DNA from: an uncultured Alphaproteobacteria bacterium
Lineage (GTDB): Bacteria > Pseudomonadota > Alphaproteobacteria > Rhizobiales > Rhizobiaceae
Length of the DNA stretch: 64,000 nt
Assembly (NCBI GenBank): GCA_963838565.1
Contig: CAWIRO010000006.1
Location: 6,595-70,594 of the forward strand
Direction: 5' to 3'
Position numbers and translations under genes: made by a program
Part shown: positions 24,221-56,980 of the stretch, piece by piece
Layout of the letters: each line of letters opens with the position of its first letter
How positions within the stretch are numbered: the first letter of the stretch is position 1
The notes under the pieces: model-generated
Database searches by the model: none
The model's input: the letters and a program-made list of their open reading frames with translations, nothing else
Told to the model about the DNA's origin: nothing

Positions 24221-24287
24221 TGGCTGGCGCGCAGTCACAGGTAAGCCAGATCATTCAGATAATTCGTCCGCTGAGGTCACAACCGTC

Positions 24288-26082
24288 ATGCTAGAATTCG
24301 TCACGTCGAGTTTTCAGCTATTGCGTCAGGCGCTGGGCAAGCGGCTGGGCCTCGTTGCGGTTGTCGTCGTTTTAGGACTAAGCAGCGCTGTCCTTGAAGG
24401 TACTGGCATTGGTCTCATTATTCCGATGCTCGGTATTATCGCCGGCGAGAAGGGTGCCTCGGGACTGGCCGGCCTCTCGGCGGTCTTCCAGCAAGTGGGT
24501 GCCGGTTTGGATGACCGGACAAGGCTGATTGTGATCGCTGCCGCCATCCTTGGATTGATCGCGCTGAAGAACGTGTTGGCGTTCGCCAATGCCGTGCTCA
24601 CCAATTTTATCTACGGCAGAGCTGGCCACGCGATCCGAAGCTCTCTTGCCGGCCAGCTTTTGACAATCGGATACCCGTTTTTCCTCCAGCAAAGCCCTGG
24701 GCGACTGCTCAACATCATCTCCAACGAATCCTGGCGGGCCTCGGATGCAATACAGACTGTCCTCGCGTCGATCGTCTACGCATCGGCCGTCGTCATTTTG
24801 CTCGCCTTCCTCTTGCTTCTTTCATGGCAGATGACATTGGGCGTCGCACTGGGGCTTGTTCTCATCCAGGCTATTCACGCAACCCTGTCAGCCACTCTGA
24901 AAGCCCTCAGCCGCAACGTCACGTCGTTCAACAGCGAACTTGCCGCCAGGATGCTCCATCTCGTACACGCCGGGCGGCTTATCCGTGCATTCGGACAGGA
25001 ACAGCGTGAGAAGGCAATCTTTGATTCCGCTTCAGATGCCGTACGAAAAGCGGGATTCGTTCTACAATCTCGCCAGGCAGTACTGCCGCCACTGACCGAG
25101 GTGCTGCATTCAGCTCTTTTCCTGACTGTTGTCGTCAGCGCGTGGCTTTGGGGCGTGAGTTTTCCGATTATTGTGGCTTTCGTGGTCCTGCTCTATCGGC
25201 TGCAACCGCATGTACGTGCGCTGCAAATGGCATGGAGTCAGGTGCAAAGCTGGAGCGGTTCTTTGGAAGAGGTCAGATGGCTCTTGGATTCATCTGACAA
25301 ACCGCAGGCCGCCAGCAGGCGATGGCGTGGTTCACGGGCTCCTCCAACAGATCAAATTCGATCGCGTGACTTTCAAATATCCGGGCTCTAGCTCGCGACC
25401 TGTGGTGCTGCGCGCCGCGAACTTCGAAATTCGCCAAGGCCGCTCGACGGCGATTGTCGGACGATCAGGCGCTGGAAAAACCACGATCGTCAATCTTCTG
25501 TGTCGATTTGTGGAACCCGATGAGGGGGATATTCTGATCGACGGCATCTCGCTGAATCGAATCGATCCTGTCCTATGGCGAAGACAAATTGCGCTCGCCA
25601 GCCAAGACCTTGAGCTGATTGATGGTACCATCCTGGAAAACATTACCTATGGCCACAATGCCTCGCTCGCCGAGGCGGAGAACGCAGCCAAGCTTGCTGA
25701 GGCGCACGAGTTCATCGAGAAGCTGCCTGAGGGATATGAGACCGTAGTCGGCTACAGGGGAGCTAGCTTTTCGGCTGGTCAGCGGCAGCGGATCGCGCTG
25801 GCACGGGCCCTGGTACGCGATCCCGAAATCCTCATTCTGGACGAGGCCACGAACGCCATGGACGGACTGTCCGAAGCAGCGATTGTCGAGACCTTGAAAT
25901 CAAGAGCCGGCCGTCGCGCGACGATCGTCATCAGCCATCACCGCAGCACCATTTCGTTTTGCGACGAAGTCGTCATACTCGATGGCGGCCGCGTCAGGAA
26001 TCAGACCCCTTTTGCCGAGGTCGCTACATTGAGCATGGACCAGCTCTACGAGCATGAATCGCTCTCTCCCCAGGTGCGGTGA
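24288..26082 (+). CDS. ABC exporter, TMD+NBD (MsbA/PglK-like flippase); frameshift near 25305
   Basis: Hydrophobic N-terminal domain, GRSGAGKTT, FSAGQRQRIALARAL, LILDEAT. Confidence 0.85.
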
Positions 26083-30727: not shown

Positions 30728-31666
30728 CGATTTTTCTCCCGCTTCTCAAGCCGGTTTAGGGCGAGCCGAAGAGCCAGAACGACAATCAGGATCGCGCCTT
30801 GTGCGCCGATCTGCCAGTCCGGCGAGATATGCATGAAGGAAAGGAAGGATCCGGCCAGCGTCAGTGTCAGCGCGCCGATCACGGCACCGATCGGCGGAAA
30901 CGCGCCCGCCCACGAATTCGCCGCCGCCGAGAATGACGCCGGCGATCGACAGAAGCGTATAGCGCAGCGCAATGTTGGCGTCCGCTGACGTCGTCAAGCC
31001 GACCAGTGCGATTCCCGATAGAACAGCAAAGAAGCCGGCCAGCGCGAAAGTTCCGGCGCGTATGGCAATCACCGACCAGCCGGCGCGTTCGACCGAGCGG
31101 AAATTTCCGCCGACGCCGCGGATCAGGACCCCAAAGGACGACCGCATGATGACCTGCGTAATGACAGCGATCACAACGCTCGCCACGATTGCCATCGGAA
31201 CGAAAGGTGGCTTGGAGGTCATCAGCCAGCGGGCCCAGTCAGGCGCGTTCCCGCCGGGCGAAGGCAGCAGGAGCACGGCGAGGCCGCCCCAGACGAAACT
31301 CATGCCAAGCGTCACGACGATCGAGGGAATATCCCTGACATAGATGACGACGCCAATCGCGGCGTAGACCGCGATCGCGGCGGCGAGGATGAGAACGCCG
31401 ACGAGAGGTGAGGTCTGCAGAAGGGTCGCGGCGACACAGGCCGTAAAGCTGACGAACGTTCCCATCGACAGGTCGAGATCGTTGACGGCCATGATCAGCA
31501 TCTGGGCGACCGTCGCCAGCGCGATCGGCACTGCGAGATTGAACAGCAGGTTGAGGCCGGTATAGCTCATCGCGCGCGGCTGCATGTAGAATACCGCCAC
31601 GAGCAGGAGTGCGAGCGACACTGCCGGAATGATCAGGCGGATGGTGCCGGAGGAAAGCCGTATCAT
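30724..31666 (-). CDS. Sugar ABC permease; frameshift near 30895
   Basis: DLDLSMG, IPSIVVTLG, SIAGVILGG; C-terminus lies in ORF 30724-30972. Confidence 0.87.
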
Positions 31667-33128
31667 TCGCCTGCTCCCGAAAATGAGGCTTCGAGGACGT
31701 TCTTCTCGGTGATTTCGTCACCGGCGAGTTCGGCAACGATCACGCCGTCCCGGAAGACGTAGACCCGATCGCAAAGGCGGATCTCATCCATTTCCGTCGA
31801 ATACCATATGAAGGTACGCCCGCCCGCGGCTTCGGAACGCAGGATGTCATAGACCTCCTGCTTGGTGCCGATGTCGACCCCGCGCATCGGGTCGTCCATG
31901 AGGACGGTGGTCGCCGTCGTGGCCAGTGCACGGCCGAAGAGGACTTTCTGCTGGTTGCCGCCGGAAAGCGACAGAATCCGATTTTCCATGTCGGGTGTGC
32001 GGATCTCGATCTTCCTTTTCCAGCTCTCGCCGAGCGCATGTTCGCGCTTTCCGTCAACGAGATTTCGCGCCGAAAGATCGCCAAGGGAGGCGATGCTCAG
32101 GTTCTTCAGGATGCTCCACAGGGGAAACGTGCCGTTGAGGCTACGGTCGCCGGCGACAAACGCGATGTCGCGCTGACGGCCTGGCAACCAGTTGCTGTTG
32201 CGGGACAGATAAAGATCGAGAAGCGCTTCCGTCTGTCCGTGTCCGCCGAGCCCCGCAAGGCCGACAATTTCGCCGCGCATCGCCTTGAACGGCAGACCGT
32301 GGCCACGGCGCGGTTCCATGGACAGGACGACCGGAGCTGTCGTTCGCCGCGCGGGCGGATCGCTCCCATTTCTGCTCGCGCATCACGTTGCCCATCGCCT
32401 CGACGAGGGTGCGTGTCGTGAAGTCTGCGGCTGGCCGGTTCGCCACGACCTTTCCGTCCTTCATCACGACGATACGGTTCGCCGTCGACAGGATTTCGCC
32501 GAGCATGTGTGAAATCAGCAGGACCGATCCTCCGGCCGAAACGAAGCGGCGCACATATTCCATGAGCTGTGCTGCAAGTCCGGCGTCCAGCGATGAGGTC
32601 GGCTCATCGAGGATGACGAGTTTCGGCTGCTCGCCGACGCCGGCGAAACTGATGGCGATTTCCACCATCTGCCGTTCGGCGATCGAGAGTTCGCTGACCG
32701 TGCTGTTGCAATCGATGCCGTGACCGGGAAAGATTTCCGTGAGCTTGGTTTCAACGAGATCGAGTGCCAGCTTTCGCCAGTTCCAGCCCTTCAGATCGCT
32801 GTGCATGATGCGGGCATTTTCGTTGACCGCGAGATTGGGGCACAGGGAAAGCTCCTGGAACACGCAGCGCACTCCATGGCGGCGTGCCGCCATGATCCCA
32901 TGACCGCCGGCATTGCCGCCATAGGTGATCGTGCCGGCGTGTGGATTGAGGCCGCCGTTGATCACGTTGACGATCGTCGATTTGCCGGCTCCGTTGTGGC
33001 CGACGAGACCGACGCATTCGCCGGCCCGAATGATGAGGTCCGCTCCGTCGAGAGCCTTGACGGCTCCATACTCGACTCTTGATGCCTTTGGCGGCAACGA
33101 CCTCTTGTCTCAGCGCTGCGTCTGTCAT
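31663..33128 (-). CDS. Sugar ABC ATPase (RbsA-like); frameshifts near 33085 and 32330
   Basis: [35 protein letters not shown]. Confidence 0.87.
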
Positions 33129-36767: not shown

Positions 36768-38458
36768 TCATAGGGTCGGTTCGTGGAGTTTTTCTGGTGC
36801 GCTCTCCTTTGGACGAACCGTCGACGATCCGTTCTGTTCCAGCGCCACGGCTGCTGCAAGAAGACCTTGCGTATACGGATGAGTGGGCGCGCTTAAGAGA
36901 TCTGCTGCCGCACCCTTCTCGACCACTTTTCCGGCTTGCAGGACGATAACACTATCACACAGCTCGCTTACGACGGCGAGGTCATGGCTGATGAAGACGA
37001 GGGTCAGTGAGCGTGTGCGTTGCAGCTCCTTGAGCAGCTTGAGCACCTGCGCCTGGATAGACACGTCGAGAGCGGAGACGATCTCGTCGCAGATCAGCAG
37101 CTGCGGCGACAGCGCAAGAGCGCGCGCGATGTTGACCCGTTGGCGCTGGCCGCCCGACAATTCGCGCGGCAGCCGATTGAGATGCATGCTCGATAGGCCG
37201 ACCTCCTCGAAGCAAGGCGACTACGGCATCCCGGCGCTGACGCCGGGGCATGCCGGAGATCGCGAATGGCTCTCCGACCGCTTGTTCGACGTTGAGCCGC
37301 GGATTGAGCGCACCGTAGGAGTCCTGGAAGATGTACTGGATGCGTGCGCGATAGGCTGCCGGCATCCGGGTCGGATCGGCCAGCGCCTGGCCATCGAAAT
37401 GGACGGCTTCCGGACTCGATCGCGCGACAGGCCGACGATGGACTTTGGCGACCGTGCTCTTGCCGCTGCCGCTTTCGCCGACAATGCCGAGCGCGCTGCC
37501 CCGCGGAACGTCGAAGGTGACCCGATCGACGGCCATGATCGGGCGGGCGAAAGGACCGCGGCCCGGATAGGAGACGACGAGATCGCGCGACGGACAGCAG
37601 GCTTGCCGGTCGCTGCTTCGGAGCCGGTTTGCGATGGAGCGGACGGACGCGTGCCGGCTGCGTGCACGCGCGGGCGTGCATTCGAGCAGCATGCGCGTGT
37701 AGTCCTGCTTCGGTGCCGTCAGCACCTCGCCGGCGGGGCCCTGTTCGACGGTCTTCGCCCTTCTGCAGAACCAGGACGTCGTCGGCGTAGTTGGCGACAA
37801 TGCCGAGATCGTGGGTGATCAGCAGCATGGCCATGCCGCGCGCCTGCTGAAGGCGCTTGAGCAATTGCAGGATCTGGGCCTGCACGGTCATGTCGAGCGC
37901 GGTCGTCGGCTCGTCGGCGATCAGCAGCGACGGATTGCCGGCCAGGGCGATGGCGATCGCAACGCGCTGCTGCTGGCCGCCGGACAGTTCGTGCGGGTAG
38001 CGCCGGGCTGCGTCGGGAACCTTATCGAGGCCCACCTCCGCCAGCAGCTCGGCAATGCGCCGCTCGGCATCGCCTTTGCGCCGCACGTCCTGCGGCAGGA
38101 CCTCGGCGATCTGGGAGGCAACGGTCATCAGCGGATTGAGCGCCGCCGACGGATCCTGGAATACAACGGCGATTTCGCGGCCGCGAACCGTGCGCAGCTC
38201 CTTCTCGGACAGGGTCGAGCAGATCGCGGTCCGCGAACATTGCGCGCCCGGACGTCGAAACCGTCGTACCCGCCGGCGTCAGGCCGATCAGCGACATGGC
38301 GGTCATCGACTTGCCCGATCCGGATTCGCCGACCAGGGCCAGGGTCCGGCCCCGCTGCGATGTTCGAATGAGACGCCGTCGACGGCCCGGACCGATCCGG
38401 AGCGACCGCTGATGGTGACGCGAAGATCGATGACGGAGAGGAGGGGAGCTTGGGTCAT
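36768..38458 (-). CDS. Fused peptide ABC ATPase, multiply frameshifted
   Basis: Pieces: [54 protein letters not shown]. Confidence 0.8.
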
Positions 38459-39394
38459 GCTTTCCTCAGGCGGGGATCGATGAAGTTTCTGGATGATGTC
38501 GGTGACGAGGTTGGCGAAGATGACGGCGAAGCCGAGCCAGATGATGATGGCCTGCACGACCGGATAGTCGCGACCCTTGATGGCCTGCAGCGTCATGCGT
38601 GCCGAGGCCGGGCAGGCCGAAGACGACTTCCATGGTGATGGCGCCGGTGAAGACCCCGCCAGCATCAGGCCGGCCAGCGCGATGACCACGGTCGAGCGCA
38701 TTCGGCAGCACGTGCCGCAGCGATGATGCGCGCGTGGCTGAGCCCCTTGGCGCGGGCGGTGCGGACGATATTCGGCGGACTCGATCATCCTTCATGTCCT
38801 CGTAGAGCAGCTTGGCGAGCGTGCCGGCGATGTCGATGCCGAGGATCAGGGCGGGCACGACGAAGTTGCCGATCGCCGGGATCCAGTGCAGCCAGACGGC
38901 AAAGACGATCACGCAGACGATGCCGATCGAGAAGGTCGGCATGGTGATCGACCAGATGGTGATCGCCTCGACCAGCCCGACGAAGATCGAACGCGGAAAC
39001 AGGCAGGCCAGCGTCGGCAGCGCGATGCCGAGCACGAGGCCGATGGCGAGCGCGGCGGCCCCCAGCATCATGCGTCGAGGGCAGGACCGTGGCGAGCAGG
39101 TCGACGATCGGGATGGCGAAGCGCGACGGACATGCCGAGATTGCCCGATAGCGATCATGCCGAGCCATTCGAAGAACTGCGTCGATCCAGGGCTTGTTGA
39201 GCCCGAGTTCGTCGCGCATCGCGGTCTGCTGCGAATAGGTCAGCGAGCCTTCGAGCCCGCGCACGTCGACCACGTCGCCGGGGATCATGCGGATGACGAA
39301 GAAGGTGAAGACGACGATGCCGACGGCAATGGCGAGCGACGCGCAGGACGTCGACGCCGATGCCGGCCAAGAGCCGCGTGAGATGCGGGTTCAT
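38455..39394 (-). CDS. Peptide ABC permease (DppB-like), multiply frameshifted
   Basis: MIPGD, ELGLNKP, HVLPNA, EVVFGLPGLG, RDYPVVQA. Confidence 0.78.
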
Positions 39395-40253
39395 AGGGTG
39401 ACACTCCTGCGGGAGACGTCGAAGCGCTGGCGCATCGTCGTTGCCGACGATGGCAAGGGCGAAGGTGACCAGCGACAGCGCGATGATGGGCGCCAGCGCC
39501 GCATGCGGCGCCTCCTCGATGTAGGGCGTGGCGCTGGCGATCATGCGGCCCCAGGTCGGGGTTTCGGGGGACACGCCGAGCCCGAGGAAGCTCAGCACCG
39601 ATTCCGATACGATGCAGCGCGGCAGGATGATGGCGAACTGCGTGATCAGGGCGCCGGCGATGTTGGGCAGCACATGGACGAGCGGCGACGCGCAGTCCGG
39701 CCCGCGCCCAGCACCTTGGCGGCGGCCGTATAGGGCTGCGCCATCTGCTGCAGGTAGGTGGCGCGCGTCATCGAGCGCGAAATTGGGGGCGAAGGAAACG
39801 CCGAGCGCGAGGATCACCGCGCCGACGCCGGGCTCGAAGGCGACGATGCAGGCCAGTGCGAAGAGGATGCCCGGCAGGGCACGGATGAGGTCGATGAGGG
39901 CGAACAGCGCGATCTCGGCCACCTTGCCGAGGGCCATGGCAAGCAGCGCGGCCAGGCGCCGATGCCCAGGGCGACGAGCGCCGCGCCCGGCGCCGTAGAG
40001 CAGGCTGAGGCCGGTGCCGACGATGAGGCGGGAATAGACGTCCTGTCCCTGCGTCGTCGGTGCCGAGGATATGGTCGTCGCTCGGGCGGCTGTTCATGTC
40101 CGCGCTGAACGTAGGGGATCCTGCGTGACCAGCAAGGGGCCGGCCACCGCGACGAACAGCGTGATGGCGACGATCAGCACGGCGATGATGGTCATGCGGG
40201 AGAGGCCCGAAAAGGGCAGGCTGCGGCGTTTCGAGCTGGGCTTCGACCGACAT
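39391..40253 (-). CDS. Peptide ABC permease (DppC-like), multiply frameshifted
   Basis: HILGTDD, HVLPNI, ESVLSFLGLG, PTWG. Confidence 0.78.
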
Positions 40254-40281
40254 GTTCGGGCCTTCCTTTGCGTTCGCTGGC

Positions 40282-41821
40282 TTACTTCTCGATCCAGGCG
40301 AAGGCGACGCCGCCATCGACACGATGGGCCGAGTAGTTGAAGCCGATCGTCATGTCGTGAACCTTCGGGCTGATGGCGATAGGCGGTCGGCGCCTGGCCG
40401 AGGCCGATGGTGTAGTACTTGTCCATCACCCGCTTCCAGGCCTGCGAGATAGAGTTGGCCCGGGTCTGCTGCGGATCGGCGGTCGAGATCGCCGACTTGA
40501 TCAGCGCGTCGAGCTCGGGATCCTGGATGCCGCCCCACAGGCCGGGATTCGGACCATCGCTCATCAGGCGCACCTAGCGCAGGAAGATGTCGTTGCGGGC
40601 GCCCGAACCACCGGGGAAGATGTCCCAGTCGTACTGCGGACAGCGCGCGCTGGTAGCCGAGGTCGTCGAACTCCTTGATGTCGACGTCGAAGCCCAGCTG
40701 GCGCAGGAGTCTGGGCCAGCGGCGGGCCGCTGCGGCTGCGCGAGCCGGTCGAGACCATGTAGAGGTTGTAGTCGCTCGGCTTGATGCCCTACTTCGGCGA
40801 TCAGCTGTCTTGGCGCGCTTCGCCAGATCCGGCTTCAGTTGTGCGGATCGTCGGCGGCGAGTGTCGGCGTCGTAGAAGAAGTTGCCCTTGCCGACCATCT
40901 GGTTGCCGGGAGTGCCGTAGTCGCCGTGCATCGACCTTCATGATCTGCGTCCGGTCGAGGGCGTAGGCGACCGCCTCGCGCACCTTGATGTTGTCGAAGG
41001 GCGGGCGCGGGTTGCGGTTGTTGAACGAGATGAAGTCCCAGCTCGTGCCGCCTGGAAGATCGATGGTGAAGCCGGCGTCCTTCAGCGTCTTGATCTTGTT
41101 CAGCGGAATGCGGGCCACGTCGTAGTCGCCGGCGCGCAGCGCCGAGCGACGCATCGGCGATCTCGCGCACGTCGAACTCGACGTCATCGAGATAGGGCTG
41201 CCCCTTCATCCAGTAGTCGGCGAACTTGTGGCCCTTGAGGGCAAGCTGCGGCGTCCAGCTGTCGAAGGTGAAGGGGCCGGTGCCGATCGGATGGGTGATG
41301 TTGTCGTCCCAGCCCGGCGATTCCGGCGCCAGGATCCAGGCTTCGGCGATGCAGGTTGAGGAAGGGCGCGAACGGCGCCTTCATCTTGACGACGAAGGTG
41401 TTGTCGTCCGGGGTCGCAGAAGCTCTCCACCTGTTCCATGGCGGTGGTCAGCCAGCCGCCCTTCGACCTTGTCGCGGATGCGCTCGAAATTCTTCATCAC
41501 GTCGTCCGCGGTCATGACGCGGCCGTTGTGGAACTTGACGCCCTGGCGCAGGTTGAAGGTGTAGGTCAGCGCCGTCGTGCGAGACCGTCCAGCTCTCGGC
41601 GAGCAGGCCCTTCGGGCTGCCGTCCTTGGAGATCGAGGTCAGCGTTTCGGCGAAGGAATGCGGCAGGGAGATGGTGCCGGTGTGACGGTGGAAGTCCGTC
41701 GTATCCAGCGTGCCCCATTTCAGGTGCAGAGTGCCGCCATAGACGGGCTGCTCGGCCGCAAGGCCGGCGCCGCTTGCCCGATCAGCAGGGCAGCGGCCAG
41801 GGATAACAGTATCTTTTTCAT
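40282..41821 (-). CDS. Family-5 ABC substrate-binding protein, multiply frameshifted
   Basis: MKKILLSLAAALL signal, PVYGGTL, LLAESWTVS, PIGTGPF, PYLD, PFDNIKVREAVAYALDR. Confidence 0.78.
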
Positions 41822-41863
41822 AACAGCTCCTGGGAGGTGATTCTGGGGAGGCAGTCGGGAGGG

Positions 41864-43184
41864 TCAGTTCTGGGGAAGGGCCAGTCCGTCCATGCCGGAT
41901 CTGGGAAGATCGAGAAAACGCAGGATCGTGGGCGCGATGTCGATCAGGCGGCGTGACGCCGTGCTTCGACGGTGCCCGGGGCAAAGCCGCCGCCATTGAC
42001 GGCGAGGAACGGGTGGCGCTCGAAGCCGCCGAGCCCGCCATGGCTGCCGAAACCTTCCGGCTTGCCGGGCTTCGCTTCGTCGACGCAAAGCGTGATCTGG
42101 CCGCGGCACGCCGAATTCGTTCGGCTCTTCGTTGCGCGCCATCGCCACGACGATGGCGAGGCCGTCGCCGGGGCGCTGGCCGAGATGCAGCATTTCGTCT
42201 CCGTAGAAGACTTCGGCGGCCCAGGGCTGAGCGCGCAGGAAGGACAGGATGGCCGGCGCACGATCCGGCCGCGCGTCGGCGAGATAGATCAGCCCGCTGC
42301 CGCCCTGCGGCGCCACCACGACATCGGTGCTGTCCGGGCCGTCCTTCAGTCCGGCTTCGATCGAGCTCGTCCGCAACGGCGATGCGGGCCGATGACGGTT
42401 TCCTGGCCATGGTCGGAGCCGGCGAGCAGCAGGATGTCCTCGCCCTCGGCGCGCAGGCGCTCGACGACAGTGTCCTCGACGCGGCCGAAGGCAGCGGTCA
42501 GCGCAGGCGATGCCGTCGAGATGGGTCTGCGAGCCGAGCTTGTCGGCGTGCATGGCGGAGTCCGGATTGGCGAGCCAGAGCACGGCAAGGCGCGGCTTGC
42601 GCTTCATCAGCACCTCGTCGCAGAACCAGTCGGCGAGCGCCTCGTCGCCGGCATAGTCATGGCTGACGACCGGCGCCTGATCGAGGCCGAGCACCTCGCC
42701 GCCGGGACCGAACGAGCCGGCGCGATGCACGACATGGCCGAAATGATCCGGATCCTGGAAATAGGCGGCTCCGGGAGAGACGTTGGAGGCGATGACGGCA
42801 CCGCCGTAAGGCGCCAGCCGCTCCGCCAGCGTCGGCACCTTCAGCGTCCGGCCGAAGGCATTGCGCAGTCTTGCCGACGAAGGCCGGATCGCCGACGTCA
42901 TGCACGCGCAAGCCGTCGCCGTCGGGCAGGCCCATGGAATTGCCGTGCAGGCCATGATTGGCCGGCCAGCAGCCTGTCGCGATCGAGGCCGCGCTTGCGC
43001 GTGTCGCCGAAGGGAAGATCGCCCGATGATTGGCGAAACTGCGCGAGCGGGAGACGAAATCGAAGATGCGCGGGCAGGTATCCTGCCGCACGAAATCGGC
43101 GCGATGGCCGTCGCAGATCACCAGGACCACGCGGCCCATGTCCTGCGCCTTCCCGGCGGGCTCGGATAGTGACGTCGAATTCAC
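41864..43184 (-). CDS. Alkaline-phosphatase-superfamily NPP/type-I phosphodiesterase-like hydrolase, frameshifted
   Basis: VVLVICDGHRAD, FPSATR (Thr nucleophile), NPDSAMH, GSDHG, GSHGG; no signal peptide. Confidence 0.8.
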
Positions 43185-44454
43185 AGTTGCACTCCATTGA
43201 TAGCGTAATCGAAGATGTCGAAATTTCTCAGCCCGGCTGCGGCGCGCGCGCCGAAGTCGGGATCGAGCCGATGGGAGAGAATGAAGGGCACCTTCTGCTC
43301 GCTGGTGCCGCCGTGCGAACGCAGCCGCTGACCGGCAAGCGCGGAGAGATCATGCTCTTGAGCGGTCGCGCCAAGCGCCACGCCGGGGCCGGCCACCACC
43401 ACGATGTCGCCTTCGCCTTCGAGCGGCAGCTCGTAGCGCACGCACGCTTCCGCGCCCGTCAAAGCGATTTCGACACCATCCAGCCCGGCAATGTGATGTT
43501 TCACGGCCTCCGCATCGATATCGTCGCGCATCAGGTAGACACGGACGAAGCCGCCGAGCGATGCGTGGTGACGCGTGAACGGATCGGTGATCGGGCAGAT
43601 GACGCGCGCCGCACCGGGACCGAACACCTTCTCGATCTCGTCCTGAACATAGAGCACGCGCGCAGCGCCATCCGGCAATGCCATGTCGTTCATGCCGTGA
43701 TCGGCGACGATGCCGACGACCGCGCCCAATGCCAGCAGCCGGGCGACCCGTCCGGTCGACCGCTCTCATGAAGGCAATCGCTTCCGGCTCTGCCGGCGCA
43801 TGCTTGTGCTGCACATAGTCCGACAGCGACAGATAGATGATGTCGCAGTCATGCCGCTCCATGCAGAGCAACGCCGGCATCGAGCACGAAGAGCGACAGG
43901 TCGGCGGAATATTTGTCTGGCGCGCCGGCCGTCTCGCCGATCGGGCCGATCGCCGCGATGGCATCTGCCGGCGATTCAGCCGACACGGCGATCCCCGTAT
44001 GCCCTCGCGCCAGCGCCTTCAGCAGCTTGTCCTTGGCTGTGACGATGGCGACGTTGGCACCGGCGGCGGAAAACCGCGCAAGAATTGTCTCGGCGCGCAT
44101 CTGATGCCCGTCGAGCACCATGACCTCGCGGCCGGTCTCGCGATCGAGATAGTAGTTGCCGGCGACGCCGGTCACCGCAGGCGGTGCGCCGCAGACGATG
44201 GCGATGTTGTTGGGATTGGTGAAGGTCGGCATCGCCGCAAGGGCGATGCCGTAGAAACCATCCGCCATCATTGCGGAGAGCGCCGGAATGGCGTCGGCTG
44301 CCTGGGCTGCCTCGAGATAGGCGGGATCGCATCCGTCAAAGCAGATCACGACGACCGGCTTCGCCGGCCGACGATAACTGCGACCATTGACAATCAACGG
44401 TTCGGTTGCGTGTTCATCTGATGCCAATTTCCCGCTCTCCGTGTTCATAAGCAT
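43181..44454 (-). CDS. phnA: Phosphonoacetate hydrolase; frameshifts near 43865 and 43765
   Basis: VNGRSYRRPAKPVVVICFDGC, MPTFTNPNN, GNYYLD, TAKDKL, YSADLS, DYVQHK, ADHGMN, PITDP, HHASLG, LRSHGG, all characteristic PhnA motifs. Confidence 0.88.
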
Positions 44455-44591
44455 GTCACTCGAATAGAAGTATGTTATCAGATTATAGTATTACCTACAG
44501 TAGTACTAAGTGTTGTCTTAGGTAGGATTGCAATATTCTCAGCATCAAGTAAATTGAGTTTTTGTTTGATCTGTGTGAGGTATCGGAACAG

Positions 44592-45515
44592 ATGAAAAGA
44601 AAACTTCCTCCGATGAAGGCTTTGATTGCTTTCGAGAGTGTTGTTCGTCATGGAAGTGTCACAAAAGCTGCGGAAGAACTATTCGTTACGCACGGCGCGA
44701 TAAGCAAACAGCTTGCAACGCTGGAAGAATGGCTCGGCCGTCCGCTCTTCGAGAAAAACCGCAAATATATGCAGCCGAAGCAGGAGGCGATGGTGCTGGC
44801 CTCTGCGGCGGATCAGGCCTGGGAACTGATAGCGGATGCGGTGGACGGCCTGCGCGTCAAAGAGGACGCGACAGTGCTGAAGGTTCTCGCGCCTTCGACT
44901 TTCGCCATGCGCTGGCTCATTCCACGGGTTTGGAGCTTTTCCGAGGAGCACAAGAGGATCGAACTGCAACTGCGCCAGACCGACAGCCTCGAGACATGGC
45001 TCGATATTCCCTTCGATGTCGCGATCCGTTCCAATCCGCATGCGCCCGGCCATCTCACGACAACGCCGTTTTTGCGGGACCAATTGATCCTGGCGATTTC
45101 TCCGAGATGCCCGATGCTGCAGCGACTCCGAACGCCCGCCGATCTGCTCTCATGCCATGTCTTGCGAGCAACGACCCGCTCGGGAGAACTGGAGGCATGG
45201 CTGGAAGCTGCCGGGCTCGGCGCAACACCGCTGAAAGCAACGTCATATCCGCATTTCTATCTGGCGCTTGAGGCCGCGCTGGCGGGAGGAGGACCGCTCG
45301 TGTGCCCTCGTGAAACTCTCGGCGATCTTTTGGCAAAACGTGAGCTTATCGAACCTTGGCCGGATATTCGGGTTGCAGGACCCACCTATACCGCAATCTA
45401 CGACGCCGGTTCGCCGCAGGCGAAATCCGCCGAAATTTTCGTAGGCTGGATCTCCGGGTGCCGTCGGTCGGAACGAAAGGCTGCGACGGACGATACCAGG
45501 TTGTTTGCGGGGTGA
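44592..45515 (+). CDS. LysR regulator (GcvA/TrpI-like), divergent from phnA
   Basis: LPPMKALIAFESVVRHGSVTKAAEELFVTHGAISKQ, TFAMRWLIPR, DVAIR. Confidence 0.9.
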   Translation: MKRKLPPMKALIAFESVVRHGSVTKAAEELFVTHGAISKQLATLEEWLGRPLFEKNRKYMQPKQEAMVLASAADQAWELIADAVDGLRVKEDATVLKVLAPSTFAMRWLIPRVWSFSEEHKRIELQLRQTDSLETWLDIPFDVAIRSNPHAPGHLTTTPFLRDQLILAISPRCPMLQRLRTPADLLSCHVLRATTRSGELEAWLEAAGLGATPLKATSYPHFYLALEAALAGGGPLVCPRETLGDLLAKRELIEPWPDIRVAGPTYTAIYDAGSPQAKSAEIFVGWISGCRRSERKAATDDTRLFAG

Positions 45516-45614: not shown

Positions 45615-46180
45615 TCAAATCATCAGCCGCGCAGCCCGCCCCTGCTTGCGCTCGGCATCATTGTAGTAGCTTGCCGCCTGGGCGACGGATTTGTGCAGCG
45701 ACTGTTGCATCGCCGCCGGCAGCGGAATGCCGCGATTGGCGGCCTCGGTCAGATAGCCGGAGCGCAGGCCATGGGCGGAAAACAGCGCCGGATCGAGGCC
45801 GGCCTGGGTGCAGCGCTTCTTCAGCATCAGGTTGACCGATTGCGGCGTCAGCGCCCGGCGGTCGACATTGCCCCATTGATCGATGCGCCGGAACACCGGC
45901 CCGGCATCGATCTTCGCCTCGGCCAGCCAGTGTTTGAGGGCGGGGACCGGCCGGCCGATCAGCACGACCTGGGCGCCGTCATCGCCGCTGGTGGTCTTGG
46001 TGCGGCCGAGACGAATGGTCAGGCAGGGCAGGAGAGGGGAGTTCTTGTCCAAGGGATCGGCGCGCACCGGTTCCTCCTCGACCAGATCCTCGATGCGCAG
46101 CCCGCCAGCTCCGACCGGCGGCGGCCGCCGGAGGCAAACGCCGTCAGCAGCAACGCCCGATCGCGAAGACCAGGCTTCAT
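45615..46180 (-). pseudogene. C-terminal (catalytic) remnant of a tyrosine recombinase
   Basis: LRDRALLLTAFASGGRRRSE, RTKT, AHGLRSGY, HKS..YY; the N-terminal half is missing and the 5' break abuts the GntR promoter. Confidence 0.82.
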
Positions 46181-46210
46181 AGGATAAGTAAACATAAAAA
46201 GATAACTGAA

Positions 46211-46224
46211 AATTGTTGACAATT
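46211..46224. promoter_or_regulatory. GntR/FadR operator 1
   Basis: AATTGT-TG-ACAATT palindrome upstream of gntR-mmgE-tct. Confidence 0.75.
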
Positions 46225-46265
46225 AACATTCTGCATACTACACATCGGTAAAGGGAGCGCTGACA

Positions 46266-46938
46266 ATGACGTTGAATGCAATCGACATTCTTCGATCGAG
46301 CTCTCTGCCGATGTTGCTCGAGCAGGAAATCGAGCGTGTCATTCTCGGTGGCGGATTTGCGCCGGGAGATCACGTCAACGAGAAGGACCTGGCGCTGCGC
46401 TTCGGCATCAGCCGCGGTCCGGTGCGCGAGGCGTTGCGCTCGCTGGATTCGTCCGGCCTTGTCGAGCAGGTGCCAAATCGCGGCTTCTTCGTTCGCCGGC
46501 TGACTGCGGCTCAGGCCTGCGATGTCTACGATGTCCGTGCCGTGCTTTTCGGCCTTGCCGGAAAGCTGCTGGCCGAGCGTATCACCGATGAGGGAATCGC
46601 GCAGCTCAGGACCTTCGTCGCCGACATGGATGCGGCCGTCGCCGCCGACGATTTCGAAGCCTACGTCAAAATCAACTTTGCCTTTCACGAATTCATCGTC
46701 GTCAGCGCCGGCAATCCGACGCTGGCCCAGCAATATCTGACGTTGGTCAAGCAGCTCCGGCTCTACCGCGCCCGCAGCCTGATGCTCGGCGATTCGATGC
46801 ATGCGTCCCATCAGCGAGCATCACGCCATGGTCGATGCCGTCGCGGCGCGCGATCCGGCGAGGGCGCTTCTCGCCCATGCGCGGCATGTCGAGGCGGCCA
46901 AAGAGCGGCTGATGGCAACGGCCCCGAACCTCAAATAG
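46266..46938 (+). CDS. GntR/FCD regulator; frameshift near 46812
   Basis: NEKDLALRFGISRGPVREAL..PNRGFFV, NFAFH, AGN; corrected end EHHAMVDAV..*. Confidence 0.88.
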
Positions 46939-46959: not shown

Positions 46960-48404
46960 GTGAATACCATATCCGACATCACGGCCCAGGCCATACGTTT
47001 CATCGAGCGCACGACCTATGCTGATTTGCCGGATGAAGCCCTCGTCATCGGCCGCCGCTGCATGGTCGATACGGTCGGGCTCTATCTCGCCGGCAGCCAG
47101 GAGGCGTCGGTGCGGATCCTGATCGAAGATGCGCTTGCTCAAGGCGGACGCGGCGATGCGCCGCTGCCGGGTGCCGGCGCCAAGAAGGTGCCGGCGGCGC
47201 TTGCCGGCCGCGTCTGGGGCACCGCAGGACACGCCCATGACTGGGACGACACCCAGGTTTCCCACGATCCGGACCATGTCTACGGGCTGCTGACGCATCC
47301 CTCCGTTCCGCCGCTGACGGCAGCGCTGATCGTTGCCAGCGAGCTCGGCAATGTCGACGGCCGCGACGTCATGCTCGCCTTCCAGGTCGGGCTTCGAGGT
47401 CGAGTGCAAGATTTCCGAATGGATGACGCCGCGCCACTATCGCCGCGGCCATCATACCAGCGGCACGGTCGGCACCTTCGGCGCCGCCGCCGCCGCCGCC
47501 AAGCTGCTCGGCCTGAAGGGCGACAAGCTCGCTCATGCGCTCGGATTGGCCGCGAGCTTCGCCGCCGGCATCCGCGTCAATTTCGGCACGATGACGAAGC
47601 CGCTGCATGTCGGCCGCGCCTGCGAAAACGGCATCACCGCCGCCTTGCTGGCCTGCGCGCGGTTTCGAGGCCGATCCGGCAGCGCTCGACGGAACCTGGG
47701 GCTTCTTCTCCGTGATGGGCGAAGGTTTCGATGCCGACAAGGCAAAGGCAGGCTTCGGTGCGCCGCTGACGATCGTCACGCCCGGCGTCAGCGTCAAGCC
47801 TTATCCGTCCGGCATTCTCACGCATCAATCGATGGATGCGATGCTGAAGCTGGTGCTCGACCACGATCTCAAGGCCGAAGAGGTCGAGCGTATCCGTTTC
47901 TTCGCCGGCAAGAACATCATCGAGCCGATCCGCTATCCGATTGCGCGCAACCATCTGCAGGCGAAGTTCTCGATGCCGGCGCTGCTCGCGATGATCGTGC
48001 TGTGCCGCCGCGCCAGCCATCACGAATTCGAGGACGCCTTCGTCGCCGGAGAGGCGATGCAGGATCTGCAGGCGCGCACCGACGTCATCAACGATCTCGA
48101 GATCGATGCTCTCGGCTACGACAAGATCCGCTCGCGCATCGAGGTCCTCACCAAGGACGGCCGGACGCTGGTGCAATGGGCGGACGAGCGTTATCGCGGC
48201 GGACCGTCCAATCCGATCAGCGACGACGAGCTCGACGGCAAGTTCCGCATGTGCGCCGAAGGCGTCATCGATGCCGGCGCCCAGGACGAGTTGCTGGCGC
48301 TGGTGCGCGGCATCGACACCGGCGCCGATATCGGCCGCCTCGTATCACTGATCAGCGGCGAAGACGCGGCGGGCCATGCGGCGAAGGAGTCTGCCGCGGA
48401 ATAA
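46960..48404 (+). CDS. MmgE/PrpD-family protein 1; frameshifts near 47390 and 47655
   Basis: GHAHDWDDT, THPS, RHY..GHHTS, NFGTMTKPLH, KPYPSG, QAKFSM. Confidence 0.87.
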
Positions 48405-49490: not shown

Positions 49491-49970
49491 ATGAACAAAG
49501 ATCTTCTTAGCGGCGTAGCGCTGCTTGCGATCGCCGGCACTTACTACACCTGGTCCACACAGATCGCCGACAGCACCTTGTCGGACGAGGTTGGTGCCGG
49601 CGGTCTGCCGCAGGTCCTGTCCGTCATCCTCGCGATTCTGGCCGTCGTCCTCATCGCCCGAGCGCTGCTGGTTGCCCGGTTGCGGACCGCGGCAGCGGCG
49701 GGCTCCGACGACGAAGACGACAACGCCCGTCTGCCGCGCGCCGTCGGCTTCCTGCTGTTCGGCGCGGCCTATGTCTTCCTGCTGCCCTTCGTCGGCTACA
49801 TCATCGCCACCGCGCTGATGATCGGGGCGATCGCTCTCTACGAAGGCGCGCCGCGAACCTGGGTGGTCGCCGCAGCGGCGATCGGCGGCGGCGTCTTCTA
49901 TTGGGCGGTGTTCGTCAAATTGCTCGGTGTCCACCAGCCGATGGGCTCGATTTTTCAAGGATTGTTCTGA
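49491..49970 (+). CDS. tctB: TTT small membrane subunit
   Basis: 4-TM protein with VGAGGLP and LPFVGYIIAT, between tctC and tctA. Confidence 0.85.
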   Translation: MNKDLLSGVALLAIAGTYYTWSTQIADSTLSDEVGAGGLPQVLSVILAILAVVLIARALLVARLRTAAAAGSDDEDDNARLPRAVGFLLFGAAYVFLLPFVGYIIATALMIGAIALYEGAPRTWVVAAAAIGGGVFYWAVFVKLLGVHQPMGSIFQGLF

Positions 49971-51469
49971 TGACCACGCTCTGGGACATCATCCATCTTC
50001 TGACGGAAACGCCGCTGGTTTTCGTCGCCATCGCCGGCCTCACCTGGGGCATTCTCGGCGGCGCGCTGCCGGGCATCTCGGCCTCGATCACCATGGCGCT
50101 CGTGCTGCCGTTCACCTATACGATGGACCCGGCGCAGGCGATCGCGCTGCTGGCCTGCGTCTATATCGGCGCCGAATATGGCGGCTCGATCCCGGCGATC
50201 CTGATCCGGACGCCCGGCACCAATTCGTCCGCCGCCACCGTCATCGACGGCTATGAGCTGAACCGGCAGGGCCGCGCCGGCGAGGCGCTCGGCATCTCGC
50301 TGATGTCCGGCGTCGTCGGCAGCCTGTTCGGCCTCGCCATGCTCATCCTGCTGACCGAGCCGCTGTCCTGGCTGGCGCTCGCCTTCACGCCGGCCTCCTA
50401 TTTCGGTCTCGGCATTCTCGGCCTCAGCGTCATCGCCTCGATGAGCGGCGGATCGCTGATCAAGGGGCTCTCGGCCGCGGCGATCGTCGGCCTGATGATT
50501 TCGACCGTCGGCACGGACCCGATCTCCGGCGTCACGCGCTTCACCTTCGATATTCCCGATTTGCTCGGCGGCATCGAGCCGGTCCTCGTCATGGTCGGCC
50601 TGTTCGCGCTGACCGAACTGATGAGCCAGTCGGGCTCGACCACCGTGACGAAGCTGAACGCCAGCATCAAGATCAGGCTGCCGAGCCTGTCGCTGATGAA
50701 CAAGCTCAAGCGCTCGCAGTTCATCGGCTGCCTGCTCGGCCTGTTCGAGGGGCTGACGCCGGGCGGCGGCGGCTCGATCGCCGCCTTCATGTCCTATAAC
50801 GAGGCGAAGCGCTGGTCGAAGACGCCGGAGAACTTCGGCAAGGGCTCGGAAGAGGGCGTCGCCGCGCCGGAGGCCGCCAACAACACCGTGGCGAGCACCG
50901 CGCTCATTCCGCTGCTGAGCTTCGGCATTCCGAGCTCGAATTCCACGGCCGTGCTGCTCGGCGGGCTGCTGATGCACGGCCTGCTGCCCGGCCCGCGTCT
51001 GTTCGAACAGAGCGCCCAGGTGATCGACAGCATCTATGTCGGCTCCTTCATCGCCATCATCGCCCAGATCGGCATCGGCATCATCATCCTGCCGGCCTGC
51101 ATCTGGCTGGTGAACCGACCGCGGCACTATCGCTCCGGCTTCATCTTCGCGCTGATCCTGTCGGGCATCTATACGCTCAACAACAGCCTGTTCGACCTCG
51201 GCCTTGCGCTGGCGCTCGGCCTGGTCGGCTATCTGATGCGGCTGACGCGCTTCCCGGTTCTGCCGATGATCCTCGGCGTCGTCCTCGGCCACATGGTCGA
51301 ATCGAGCTATCGGCGTTCGCTGGTGCTGTCGGGCGGCGATCACATGATCTTCCTGCAGGATCCGATCGCCGTCTGCCTGTTGTCCCTCGCCCTTATCTTC
51401 GTCGTCTTCTCGCTCGGCCGCGAACTTCGCGATGCCCGCAAGAGCAAATTAGAGGAAGCCCATTCATGA
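49970..51469 (+). CDS. tctA: TTT large membrane subunit
   Basis: GALPGISA, EYGGSIPAILIRTPGT, APEAANN, GIP, PGP. Confidence 0.92.
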   Translation: MTTLWDIIHLLTETPLVFVAIAGLTWGILGGALPGISASITMALVLPFTYTMDPAQAIALLACVYIGAEYGGSIPAILIRTPGTNSSAATVIDGYELNRQGRAGEALGISLMSGVVGSLFGLAMLILLTEPLSWLALAFTPASYFGLGILGLSVIASMSGGSLIKGLSAAAIVGLMISTVGTDPISGVTRFTFDIPDLLGGIEPVLVMVGLFALTELMSQSGSTTVTKLNASIKIRLPSLSLMNKLKRSQFIGCLLGLFEGLTPGGGGSIAAFMSYNEAKRWSKTPENFGKGSEEGVAAPEAANNTVASTALIPLLSFGIPSSNSTAVLLGGLLMHGLLPGPRLFEQSAQVIDSIYVGSFIAIIAQIGIGIIILPACIWLVNRPRHYRSGFIFALILSGIYTLNNSLFDLGLALALGLVGYLMRLTRFPVLPMILGVVLGHMVESSYRRSLVLSGGDHMIFLQDPIAVCLLSLALIFVVFSLGRELRDARKSKLEEAHS

Positions 51470-54839: not shown

Positions 54840-55857
54840 GCGTCGAGCCGTTTGAACTGGACGAGCCTGCTTGCCAGCCTGATGGCGTTCTCGAATGCGC
54901 GCCGGTATCGGCAATGCCCTTGCCGACGATGTCGAAGGCCGTGCCATGCGCCGGCGTGGTGAAGATGGTGTCGAGCCCGGCGGTCACCGTGACGCCGCGG
55001 TTGAAGCCGCGCATCTTCGTCGCGATCTGGCCCTGGTCGTGATACATGGCAAGCACGCCGTCATAGTCGCCGGCGAAGGCCTTCAGGTAGACGGTGTCCG
55101 ACGGGAACGGCCCCTCGCAATCGAAGCCCTTGGCAGCCATGGCTTCGACGGCGGGGCGGATGATCTCGATCTCCTCCATGCCGAACAGGCCGTTTTCGCC
55201 GGCATGCGGATTGAGGGCAGCGACCGCAAGCCGAGGCGAAACGATGCCGGCCTTGCGCATCATCGTCACGGCACAGTTCGATGGCGTTCTCGATCGCCGG
55301 CACGGTCGATCTGATCGACCGCCTGCCGTAGCGACACATGCGAGGTGACGCGCGACATCCATTGATTGTCGAGCACGTTCATCTCGCTGAAATAGCCGCG
55401 ATGGCCGAGCAGATGGGCGAACATCTTGTGCTCGTCCGGAAAATGCCAGCCGCCGTCATACATCGCCCGCTTGTTGAGCGGCGCGAAGGAAACGGCGTCG
55501 ACCTCGCCGGCCTTGGCGAAATCGATCGCCCGCGACAGGGTTTCGCCGGTGACGCGGCCGGACTCGGCGCTGCCGATGCCCGGCGGATAGAGCGACGGAT
55601 CGGTGTTGTTCGAGGTCGATGATCGGCACGGTCTCGTCCGACCAGTCGATGGCCGCAGGGCTGTGCATAGCGCCGGTATTCGCAAGGCGCACGCCGGCCT
55701 GCCGCATGCCGAGTTCGAGCACCCTGGCATCGCCGACCACGACGATGCGGGCAGTCTCCCTCATCCGGCCGTCGTGCAGAATGCGGGCCGTCTGTTCCGG
55801 TCCGATGCCGGTGCAATCGCCCGGGGTGAGGGCGATGATGGGAAGCTCTCGGCTCAT
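54836..55857 (-). CDS. PdxA-family decarboxylating dehydrogenase (non-canonical), frameshifted
   Basis: TPGDCTGIGPE, APLNK, TSHVSL, LNPHAGE, MYHDQGQ, TTPAHGTAFDI; DEH in place of the canonical GHTE. Confidence 0.82.
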
Positions 55858-56968
55858 GATTGCCTCGACGTCTGAGGGGTGGGGAGGGATGTCGCCAGAA
55901 GCGCTTCGGCGATGGCCTTGCCGCAGGTCGACGGTGTCGGCGCTGCCGCCGAGATCGCCGGTCCTCGAGGCGGGATCGGCGAGCACTGTCTCGATCGCCG
56001 AGACGATGGCTGCCGCCGCCTCGGGATGGCCGAGATGGTCGAGCATCATCGCGCCGGCCCAGATCTGGCCGATCGGATTGGCAATTCCCTTGCCGGCAAT
56101 GTCGGGCGCGGAACCGTGCACCGGCTCGAACAGCGACGGGAAATTGCGCTCCGGATTGATGTTGCCCGAGGGCGCGATGCCGATCGTGCCGGTGCAGGCG
56201 GGACCGAGATCGGAGAGGATGTCGCCGAAAAGGTTGGAGGCGACGACGACGTCGAAGCGATCCGGATTGAGCACGAAATGCGCGCAGAGAATGTCGATAT
56301 GGTATTTGTCCGCAGCGCACATCCGGATAGGCTTTCGCCATCTCCTCGACGCGCTCGTCCCAATAGGGCATGGTGATCGAAATGCCGTTCGACTTGGTCG
56401 CCGAGGTCAGGTGTTTCTTGCCCCGGCTCTGGGCCAGATCGAAGGCGTAGCGCAGGATGCGGTCGACGCCGATGCGGCTCATCACGGTTTCCTGCACGAC
56501 GATCTCGCGCTCGGTGCCGGGATACATCTTGCCGCCGATCGAGGAATATTCGCCCTCGGTGTTTTCGCGCACGACGAAGAAATCGATATCGCCGGGCTTG
56601 CGGCCGGCGAGCGGCGATGGAACGCCCGGCATCAGGCGCACCGGCCGCAGGTTGACATACTGGTCGAACTCGCGGCGGAACTGCAGGAGCGAGCCCCAGA
56701 GCGAGATATGGTCCGGCACGGTTTCCGGCCAGCCGACGGCGCCGAAGAAGATCGCGTCGTGGCCGCCGATCTGCGCCTTCCAGTCCTCCGGCATCATCCG
56801 GCCATGGGCGGCGTAGTAGTCGCAGGAGGCGAAGTCGAAATGGTCGAAGGCGAGGTCGATCTCGAATTGGCCGGCGGCCGCTTCGAGGACGCGCAGACCC
56901 TCGGGCACCACTTCCTTGCCGATGCCGTCGCCGGGGATGACCGCGATCTTCAGACGATTGGACGGCAT
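55854..56968 (-). CDS. Tartrate dehydrogenase/D-malate dehydrogenase (decarboxylating)-like, copy B; frameshifted
   Basis: PGDGIGKEV, VPDHISLWG, RENTEGEY, TKSNG, FGDILSD, EPVHGSAPDIAG. Confidence 0.88.
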
Positions 56969-56980
56969 GTCGGTCTCCCT

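Follow-up and report, generated by a model that had tools for sequence, protein, structure and literature searches.

The stretch of DNA analysed in this work (hereafter the window) comprises 64,000 nucleotides from an uncultured alphaproteobacterium of the family Rhizobiaceae (assembly GCA_963838565.1, contig CAWIRO010000006.1, positions 6,595 to 70,594), and its subject is an operon in which phnA, the gene for phosphonoacetate hydrolase, is followed by the gene for an enzyme of the NPP type. The assembly amounts to 3.85 Mb in 28 contigs and is rated 65.5% complete. A lysR gene on the plus strand diverges from a six-gene unit on the minus strand that reads phnA, NPP-like gene, SBP_bac_5 gene, permease, permease and ATPase; a first-pass annotation, made from the letters of the window alone, had proposed this gene set and layout, and both are borne out by matches to Pfam and TIGR02335. 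The operon is a real unit and its arrangement is not due to chance, since the same intact order is found in Devosia, Microvirga, Prosthecomicrobium, Chelativorans, roseobacters and Bordetella; intact orthologous operons occur in many Alpha- and some Betaproteobacteria, from soil and from the sea.

The regulator gene (44562-45515, plus strand; alternative ATG start at 44592) is unbroken. Its GcvA-like product has an N-terminal HTH_1 and a C-terminal LysR_substrate domain (Pfam), which, with the divergent orientation, makes it a LysR-type regulator, and it is 66% identical over 312 amino acids, free of frameshifts, to its counterpart at an intact Devosia locus from a metagenome-assembled genome (MAG; locus L014), whose top NCBIfam match is GcvA, under that model's cutoff. 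An AT-rich divergent promoter region (44455-44561), partly conserved with a Rhizobium sp. MAG locus (L018), separates lysR from phnA (43181-44454, minus strand), which carries two one-base insertions, near 43862 and 43755, and matches TIGR02335 in three pieces. Next comes the gene for an alkaline-phosphatase-superfamily enzyme, NPP-like and predicted to be cytoplasmic (41864-43184, minus strand; Pfam Phosphodiest, PF01663), with some seven to eight one-base insertions. Its GTG start overlaps the stop of phnA as GTGA at 43184-43181, an overlap that had been noticed earlier and that the sequence confirms.

The remaining four genes, all on the minus strand, make up an importer of the Dpp/Opp/Nik type: a periplasmic substrate-binding protein (SBP) of the SBP_bac_5 family, cluster C (40282-41860, start approximate, about 14 frameshifts), a DppC/NikC-like permease (39391-40253, 9 frameshifts), a DppB/NikB-like permease (38456-39394, end approximate, 12 frameshifts) and a fused double ATPase resembling DppD-DppF/YejF (36768-38455, 10 frameshifts). 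The Pfam domains of such importers are all present, i.e., SBP_bac_5, BPD_transp_1 in both permeases (on fragments in the second) and two ABC_tran plus two oligo_HPY domains in the ATPase, where an internal repeat at a spacing of about 830 nt corresponds to its two halves. Orthologues of the importer proteins match NCBIfam models of Nik, Opp, Gsi and Dpp components, all under their equivalog cutoffs, and the N-terminus of the SBP orthologue is hydrophobic and resembles a signal sequence. The 3′ end of the operon showed no sites that look like a promoter or terminator.

PhnA and its recurrent neighbour

The three pieces of the window phnA match positions 3-184, 182-221 and 221-408 of TIGR02335, the NCBIfam equivalog model for phosphonoacetate hydrolase, with 209, 39.5 and 223 bits; because of the frameshifts no single piece rises above the cutoff of 407.55 bits. 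The intact Devosia orthologue (L014) does so with 495.5 bits, matching the PhnA structures of S. meliloti and P. fluorescens at E values of about 1e-96 to 1e-98 (about 331 bits to PDB 3SZY). The translation from the window carries the nucleophile motif PTFTNPNN and the lysine pair VTAKDKLL, both of which align to S. meliloti PhnA. Judged from its sequence, then, the window PhnA genuinely belongs to the family of phosphonoacetate hydrolases, in a clade apart from the enzymes of phnW-phnA-phnY clusters: the PhnA tree shows a split with 98% support that leaves 51 of 54 NPP-linked proteins on one side and all 18 phnW/phnY-linked ones on the other, the three exceptions being NPP-linked PhnAs from TRAP- or CUT1-associated loci that fall on the phnW/phnY side.

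That split might be taken to mean that the NPP-linked clade does not act on phosphonoacetate, and that the pair serves the two-step breakdown of some other organophosphorus compound, such as a head-group ester, from a phosphonolipid or phosphonoglycan, with a phosphonate other than phosphonoacetate. The linked PhnAs are indeed only 41-46% identical to those of the phnW-phnA-phnY type, and their TIGR02335 scores (495 bits for L014 and 443 bits for another linked copy) lie nearer the cutoff than those of the latter (482-597 bits). We nevertheless consider this improbable, given that the Thr nucleophile motif, the metal ligands and both lysines are invariant across both clades (25 family members) and that the Devosia orthologue passes the equivalog cutoff.

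The lack of phnW and phnY, which the first-pass annotation had pointed out for the window, was also seen on a wider scale. Neither phnW (TIGR02326) nor phnY (TIGR03250) gave a match above cutoff in the organism's own assembly, 65.5% complete as it is, nor were they found in four of five genomes carrying the intact operon, and in none of the NPP-linked loci does either gene lie next to phnA. The fifth case is instructive: Microvirga brassicacearum CDVBN77 has the operon of lysR, phnA, NPP-like gene and SBP_bac_5 importer (L017/L066) on one contig and a phnW-phnA-phnY cluster (L163) on a different one, and the two routes are thus separate modules. Among the 89 phnA operons known in 2012, 71 contained phnW and phnY, the remainder resembling the LysR-controlled type of P. 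fluorescens 23F (PMC3266647).

The pairing itself is widely conserved. Fifty loci encoding relatives of the window PhnA were compared, of which 49 could be assessed (one contig ends inside phnA), and in 34 of these phnA is followed directly by the NPP-like gene. The carriers are Devosia, Microvirga, Prosthecomicrobium, Rhodoplanes, Mesorhizobium, Ancylobacter, Starkeya and Acuticoccus, many Bradyrhizobium, and members of Stellaceae and Burkholderiaceae. Approached from the other gene, with the NPP-like alignment as query, the family counts at least 564 loci in species-representative genomes; among the best 80 of these, phnA stands immediately upstream in 30 and is missing from the flank in 47, and in a set of 105 non-redundant loci it lies directly upstream in 55. 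In a tree of these 105 proteins the 55 linked ones are spread over several well-supported clades, and in the clade of the window type (Devosia, Microvirga, Chelativorans, Prosthecomicrobium and roseobacters) all 12 members are linked to phnA and accompanied by an SBP_bac_5 importer. The neighbourhood survey of phnA, NPP-like and SBP_bac_5 genes that the first-pass annotation had proposed thus shows a pairing that recurs.

Where the two genes are not adjacent they may still share a genome. Five genomes were considered in which the first NPP-like gene found is unlinked to phnA; phnA is encoded elsewhere in four of them, three times in a cluster of the phnW/phnY type and once (G047) beside a second NPP-like copy. 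Of 200 alphaproteobacterial genomes drawn evenly, each at least 90% complete, 19 have phnA, namely three of the four with a strong NPP-like match vs 16 of the 196 others (hypergeometric p of about 0.003, computed by hand and to be read with the reservation that related genomes are not independent). NPP-like genes that lack an adjacent phnA have mixed neighbours (e.g., MFS transporter, aldehyde dehydrogenase, luciferase-like monooxygenase and acyl-CoA synthetase genes), which give no clear clue to a substrate. The complete genome of Devosia sp. RCC3390_8c (L075, L144) has two NPP-like paralogues, one unlinked to phnA and the other directly beside it, the latter 43% identical to the protein of the Devosia locus L014.

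These distributions also bear on the simplest account of the operon, in which it would be a system for free phosphonoacetate of the P. fluorescens 23F type, the ABC importer would bring in phosphonoacetate as such, PhnA would do all the relevant chemistry, and the NPP-like protein would be an accessory cytoplasmic phosphodiesterase, perhaps with a general role. LysR-regulated phnA operons with a transporter only, and no phnW or phnY, are known (PMC3266647, PMC10574752), and NPP-like genes do occur away from phnA. An accessory of this sort would, however, hardly be expected to keep a constant order behind phnA, with overlapping stop and start codons, in 55 loci of several clades, nor would one expect the strong co-occurrence of both families at the genome level or a co-evolution with the partner that sets the linked PhnAs apart in their own clade. 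We regard this account as rather unlikely. A phosphodiesterase or alkaline-phosphatase partner of phnA is not mentioned in the parts of the literature covered by our search, including studies of genes recurrent in phosphonate degradation clusters, and the association of a phosphonoacetate hydrolase operon with a widely conserved partner enzyme appears to be an undescribed combination and suggests a step of phosphonate breakdown that has yet to be described.

The partner enzyme and its candidate substrate

No characterised or solved member of the NPP-like family was found in searches of NCBIfam, PDB sequences and the ESM Atlas: no NCBIfam family matched, the PDB search returned only weak matches to ENPP4 and NPP, and the ESM Atlas offered only the automatic name 'alkaline phosphatase family protein'. 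The N-terminal piece encoded in the window scores 46.3 bits against PF01663 (cutoff 23) and an intact Bradyrhizobium orthologue 103.5 bits, and the active site of that family is present, i.e., the two-metal ligands, the Thr nucleophile and the Asn in contact with the phosphoryl group, with T57 and N78 aligning to their equivalents in NPP and ENPP4. The first metal ligand stands already at residue 21, so that a signal peptide is lacking. The residues D21, T57, R58, N78, D204, H208, D252, H253 and H375, as well as the family's motifs N130-V-S-P-G-A-A and D140-P-D, are invariant, as assessed over 34 sequences and over 101 of the 105-sequence set (55 linked to phnA and 46 unlinked), and they are the same in linked and unlinked members. 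The partner is, by these features, a predicted cytoplasmic enzyme with two metals and a Thr nucleophile that belongs to the NPP branch.

One of the invariant residues sets the family apart. The position after the nucleophile is held by Arg (R58), vs Phe in the NPPs, and in NPP structures this Phe forms part of the wall of the slot that receives the group remaining on the phosphorus. A nucleotide is doubtful as the substrate, since the Phe of the nucleotide slot has been replaced, and an Arg in the same slot would, we infer, suit the carboxylate of a phosphonoacetyl group.

The AlphaFold (AF2) model of the NPP-like protein has a pLDDT of 95.4; in a Foldseek search ENPP1/3, Xanthomonas NPP, ENPP5/6 and PhnA all came out near a TM of 0.65, and an exhaustive VIA-align search gave Z scores of 35.0 for Xanthomonas (Xac) NPP, 34.7 for ENPP7, 34.4 for ENPP6 and 34.1 for ENPP4, vs 29.3 for PhnA (1EI6). 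Going by the model, the partner is structurally nearer the true phosphodiesterases than it is to PhnA. With Xanthomonas NPP, ENPP4, ENPP6 and ENPP7 it would have in common the fold (Z 34-35, 355-364 residues aligned), the two-metal ligands, the Thr nucleophile and the phosphoryl-contacting Asn, and it differs from them in being cytoplasmic, in having Arg for Phe, in its own NVSPGAA and DPD motifs and in a sequence identity of only 15-19%.

Kinship with PhnA raises another possibility, namely that the NPP-like protein is a second C-P hydrolase, acting in parallel to PhnA on a related beta-carboxy or alpha-substituted phosphonate (e.g., 2-phosphonopropionate, hydroxyphosphonoacetate, phosphonoformate or phosphonopyruvate), and that the operon serves free phosphonocarboxylates. 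Both proteins belong to one branch of the superfamily, the invariant Arg58 beside the nucleophile could stabilise a carboxylate or aci-carboxylate, the variable small-anion carriers of other lineages (TRAP and ChrA-like, see below) fit free phosphonocarboxylates, and P. fluorescens PhnA cleaves 2-phosphonopropionate less than phosphonoacetate (PMC10574752), which would leave room for a dedicated enzyme. Opposed to this are the greater structural proximity of the model to P-O phosphodiesterases, the retention of the NPP-type Asn78 and the apparent lack of the lysine pair, which in PhnA stabilises the carbanion leaving group (PMC10574752). A profile alignment of PhnA with the NPP-like family (20% identity) runs ungapped through the helix and strand before the lysine loop, and we read it, as an alignment of profiles and not a superposition of structures, as placing the TAKDKL loop of PhnA at NVSPGA of the partner, so that the pair would be absent from the latter. 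A second C-P hydrolase is therefore unlikely in our view, though it is the first among the alternatives that we would keep in mind.

The transporters encoded beside the pair differ between lineages, and their variety bears on the size of the substrate. An SBP_bac_5 importer follows the pair in the window, Devosia, Microvirga, roseobacters and Bordetella, and a divergent one is found in Mesorhizobium delmotii. Bradyrhizobium has instead an SBP_bac_1/8 (CUT1-type) ABC system, with a TOBE-domain ATPase and two permeases, after the pair; TRAP genes (DctP/DctQ/DctM) take this place in Rhodovibrionaceae and in Tepidamorphaceae/Azospirillaceae MAGs (L023:11889-15170, L105:9097-12561), and in Stellaceae (L121:9272-10528) it is taken by a gene of the chromate-transporter family (ChrA-like), the start of which overlaps the end of the NPP-like gene. 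DctP-family proteins bind their ligands by a carboxylate, which a conserved Arg recognises, and CHR carriers transport small oxyanions of tetrahedral shape. The occurrence of TRAP, CUT1 and ChrA-like carriers beside the same pair argues for a substrate that would be a small anion with a free carboxylate, and makes a large conjugate with a sugar, nucleoside or peptide less likely. It was such a large conjugate that the first-pass annotation had envisaged, and this part of its proposal is weakened. Among solved structures, the binding protein comes closest to GsiB/YliB, which binds glutathione, and to AgaA, which binds agropinic acid; the agrocinopine binder AccA is much more distant (E of about 1e-13). 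In Bradyrhizobium lablabi (L036:3000-16100) and other Bradyrhizobium loci (L032-L040) the genes upstream of the pair encode a Liv-type ABC system (Peripla_BP_6, a fused BPD_transp_2 protein and two ATPases) and a protein of the amidase family, and regulators of the SorC and IclR types lie nearby; the amidase gene may hint at an amide-linked substrate.

The best reading of this material, on the evidence of homology and gene order, would be a hydrolytic step that feeds PhnA: the partner is constant, translationally coupled, cytoplasmic, equipped with residues of the phosphodiesterase type and nearer NPP than PhnA. In the scheme that we tentatively favour, and to which we would grant somewhat less than an even chance, the SBP and ABC importer would take up a derivative of phosphonoacetate with a free carboxylate and with its phosphorus blocked as a P-O monoester, as an anhydride or perhaps as a P-N amidate. 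The blocking group would be stripped off by the NPP-like enzyme, with the invariant Arg beside the nucleophile holding the carboxylate; PhnA would then split the C-P bond to yield acetate and phosphate, and the LysR protein would turn the operon on with the substrate or with phosphonoacetate, independently of Pho control. The sequence of de-esterification and C-P cleavage suggested by the first-pass annotation is thereby retained as plausible, on account of the coupled NPP-type partner, and only its large conjugate becomes less likely.

Several points weigh against such a scheme. Its chemistry is drawn from homology and synteny, and the equivalence of the PhnA and partner loops hangs on the profile alignment just mentioned. 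A natural P-O ester of phosphonoacetate was not found in the literature searched, and to our knowledge none has been described. In 46 of the 105 non-redundant NPP-like loci (about 44%) there is no adjacent phnA and the same invariant active-site residues are kept, so the reaction of the family need not yield phosphonoacetate. The transporters beside the pair, moreover, differ widely between lineages, and a ChrA-like or TRAP carrier could simply import free phosphonoacetate. On the other hand, genes for a PhnY-like step that leads to phosphonoacetate are present in about 6% of ppm neighbourhoods, with predicted products mostly of unknown structure, and only two such phosphonoacetate-derived biosynthetic pathways have been characterised, those of the fosfazinomycins and of O-phosphonoacetic acid serine (PMC8942020). 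This biosynthetic genomics gives independent support to the existence of unidentified natural products derived from phosphonoacetate. That the NPP-like family as a whole unblocks a natural phosphonoacetate derivative (a P-O ester, anhydride or P-N amidate with a free carboxylate), and with its dedicated PhnA clade forms a second route that is independent of 2-aminoethylphosphonate (AEP), is a wider proposition, which may be right but about which we are a little more doubtful.

Assembly errors and genomic setting

As the first-pass annotation had remarked, the reading frames of the operon are broken by frameshifts. They lie in an error-dense block (37209-43863) with about 57 one-base indels, or 8.5 per kb, as delimited by frameshift-aware and DNA alignments. 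Its boundaries fall within the ATPase gene and within phnA, and lysR as well as both gene ends are free of such errors. Alignment of the six proteins of the intact Devosia operon (L014) to the window DNA, allowing for frameshifts, required 54 changes of frame (2 in phnA, 7 in the NPP-like gene, 14 in the SBP gene, 9 and 12 in the permease genes and 10 in the ATPase gene) and met no in-frame stop in any of the six genes and no large deletion. The corrected proteins are 72-86% identical along their whole length to those of Devosia, with 79% for PhnA, 86% for the NPP-like protein (432 amino acids), 76% for the SBP, 83% for the permease of 39391-40253, 82% for that of 38456-39394 and 72% for the ATPase. 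In a DNA alignment of the window with six orthologous operons, 51 single-base insertions and 6 single-base deletions occur in the window only; the added bases (G 17, C 16, A 12 and T 6) lie mainly outside homopolymers, and the Rhizobium sp. MAG contig (L018; 83.7% DNA identity) pinpoints both phnA insertions within conserved sequence.

The damage is not confined to the operon. The genes rpoB and rpoC are also fragmented and each is present twice, on contigs C23 and C11 (C23:3-7750, C11:130191-135930), which suggests two strains or a duplicated bin; several aldehyde dehydrogenase genes are likewise split, and the completeness figure of 65.5% may be partly due to broken marker genes. A genome-wide scan with a purpose-written six-frame dicodon Viterbi tracker counted 4023 putative frameshifts, or 1.05 per kb; control loci taken from other assemblies of comparable GC content (350 kb in all) gave 0.06 per kb, a 17-fold difference. 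Their density climbs with GC content (Spearman 0.53), from 1.1 per 5 kb below 58% GC to about 9 per 5 kb at 64% or above, and 27% of the 5-kb windows hold at least 8. The operon, with a GC content of 0.65-0.69 vs 0.56-0.62 in its flanks, is thus one of many badly called stretches. Paired long same-strand open reading frames that overlap in different frames are also seen at 30746-33097 (minus), 24153-26082 (plus) and 55379-57897 (minus) of the window; they include a sugar or Liv-type ABC operon, and are probably more frameshift errors.

The operon frameshifts are assembly errors, and the operon is therefore almost certainly functional in this organism rather than dead. The first-pass annotation had allowed that real frameshifts, and hence a dead unit, would undo its proposal, and this is what the lack of stops, the broken rpoB and rpoC and the GC-linked errors across the genome contradict. 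It might be argued that the frameshifts are genuine and that the operon is a decaying array of pseudogenes in this strain: 54-57 frame-breaking indels within 6.7 kb are many, and an operon beside an integrase gene could be an acquired, perhaps dispensable, island. Decay, however, would not be expected to spare every gene from stops and large deletions, to leave corrected proteins so close to intact orthologues, to proceed almost exclusively by single-base insertions in non-repetitive contexts, to start and end inside genes, or to break essential genes such as rpoB and rpoC along with some 4000 other sites whose density tracks GC content. Such decay seems to us very improbable indeed. Given these GC-dependent indel errors, apparent pseudogenes in this assembly should not be taken as biology.

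The integrase just mentioned is a phage-integrase-family gene (45615-46811, minus strand; a weak Pfam Phage_integrase match of 30 bits) that abuts lysR, the other flank of the operon being formed by a response regulator and a histidine kinase. A DNA search of 40 relatives did not find the operon in the 24 same-genus genomes among them, its sole match being one distant MAG at 65-69%. The integrase neighbour, this absence from 24 same-genus genomes and the GC content above that of the flanks suggest that the operon is an acquired island. Neither a tRNA gene nor att-like direct repeats were found to delimit such an island, and a search of plasmid records for near-identical DNA gave only fragments of ABC ATPases and a 75% phnA fragment. 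Beyond the integrase gene lie an MmgE/PrpD-family gene (46960-48404, plus strand), split into two overlapping reading frames for its N- and C-domains, probably by a frameshift error, and after it a gene for a TctA tricarboxylate transporter (49901-51469, plus strand); in about 150 related loci these two are not neighbours of the phnA operon, and here the integrase gene intervenes, so that gene order lends no support to a link between them and the operon.

Known systems and significance

Three known systems resemble the operon in part. The phnR-phnA system of P. fluorescens 23F is similar in its divergent LysR-type regulator, its phnA without phnW or phnY and its dedicated transporter, which is reportedly a GlpT-like MFS protein encoded by phnB. 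No NPP-like second enzyme has been reported for it, and the window PhnA would fall in a separate clade. LysR-type control of phnA that is induced by the substrate and independent of phosphate is already known from that strain, and control independent of phosphate would be expected here too (PMC10574752, PMC3266647). The phnW-phnA-phnY cluster of S. meliloti, which degrades AEP, has the same final enzyme family and a LysR regulator, and differs by the two genes that were found neither in this assembly nor in four of the five genomes with the intact operon that were searched. The acc genes of Agrobacterium (AccA and AccF, for agrocinopine) offer a likeness by analogy, i.e., import of a phosphodiester-type compound by an SBP_bac_5/Dpp-type system followed by a cytoplasmic phosphodiesterase, although no C-P bond is involved there, AccA is a more distant relative of the window binding protein than GsiB/YliB and AgaA are, and AccF belongs to a different enzyme family from the NPP-like partner.

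Since the copy in the window is poorly assembled, the lead is better followed in cultured carriers of intact copies, which include Microvirga brassicacearum, Prosthecomicrobium pneumaticum, Yoonia vestfoldensis, Antarctobacter heliothermus, Bradyrhizobium spp. and Bordetella bronchiseptica, the first of them being convenient for telling the two routes apart. Few genes of phosphonate catabolism are as abundant in the ocean as phnA, and the natural source of phosphonoacetate outside AEP breakdown is still uncertain (PMC10574752). An uncharacterised enzyme coupled to a separate PhnA clade, in genomes where no AEP route was detected, provides a handle on this source, and the substrate of the partner would reveal a new natural phosphonate or a new mode of delivery. 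If the scheme put forward here is true, a blocked phosphonoacetate compound of this kind would be widespread in soil and sea.

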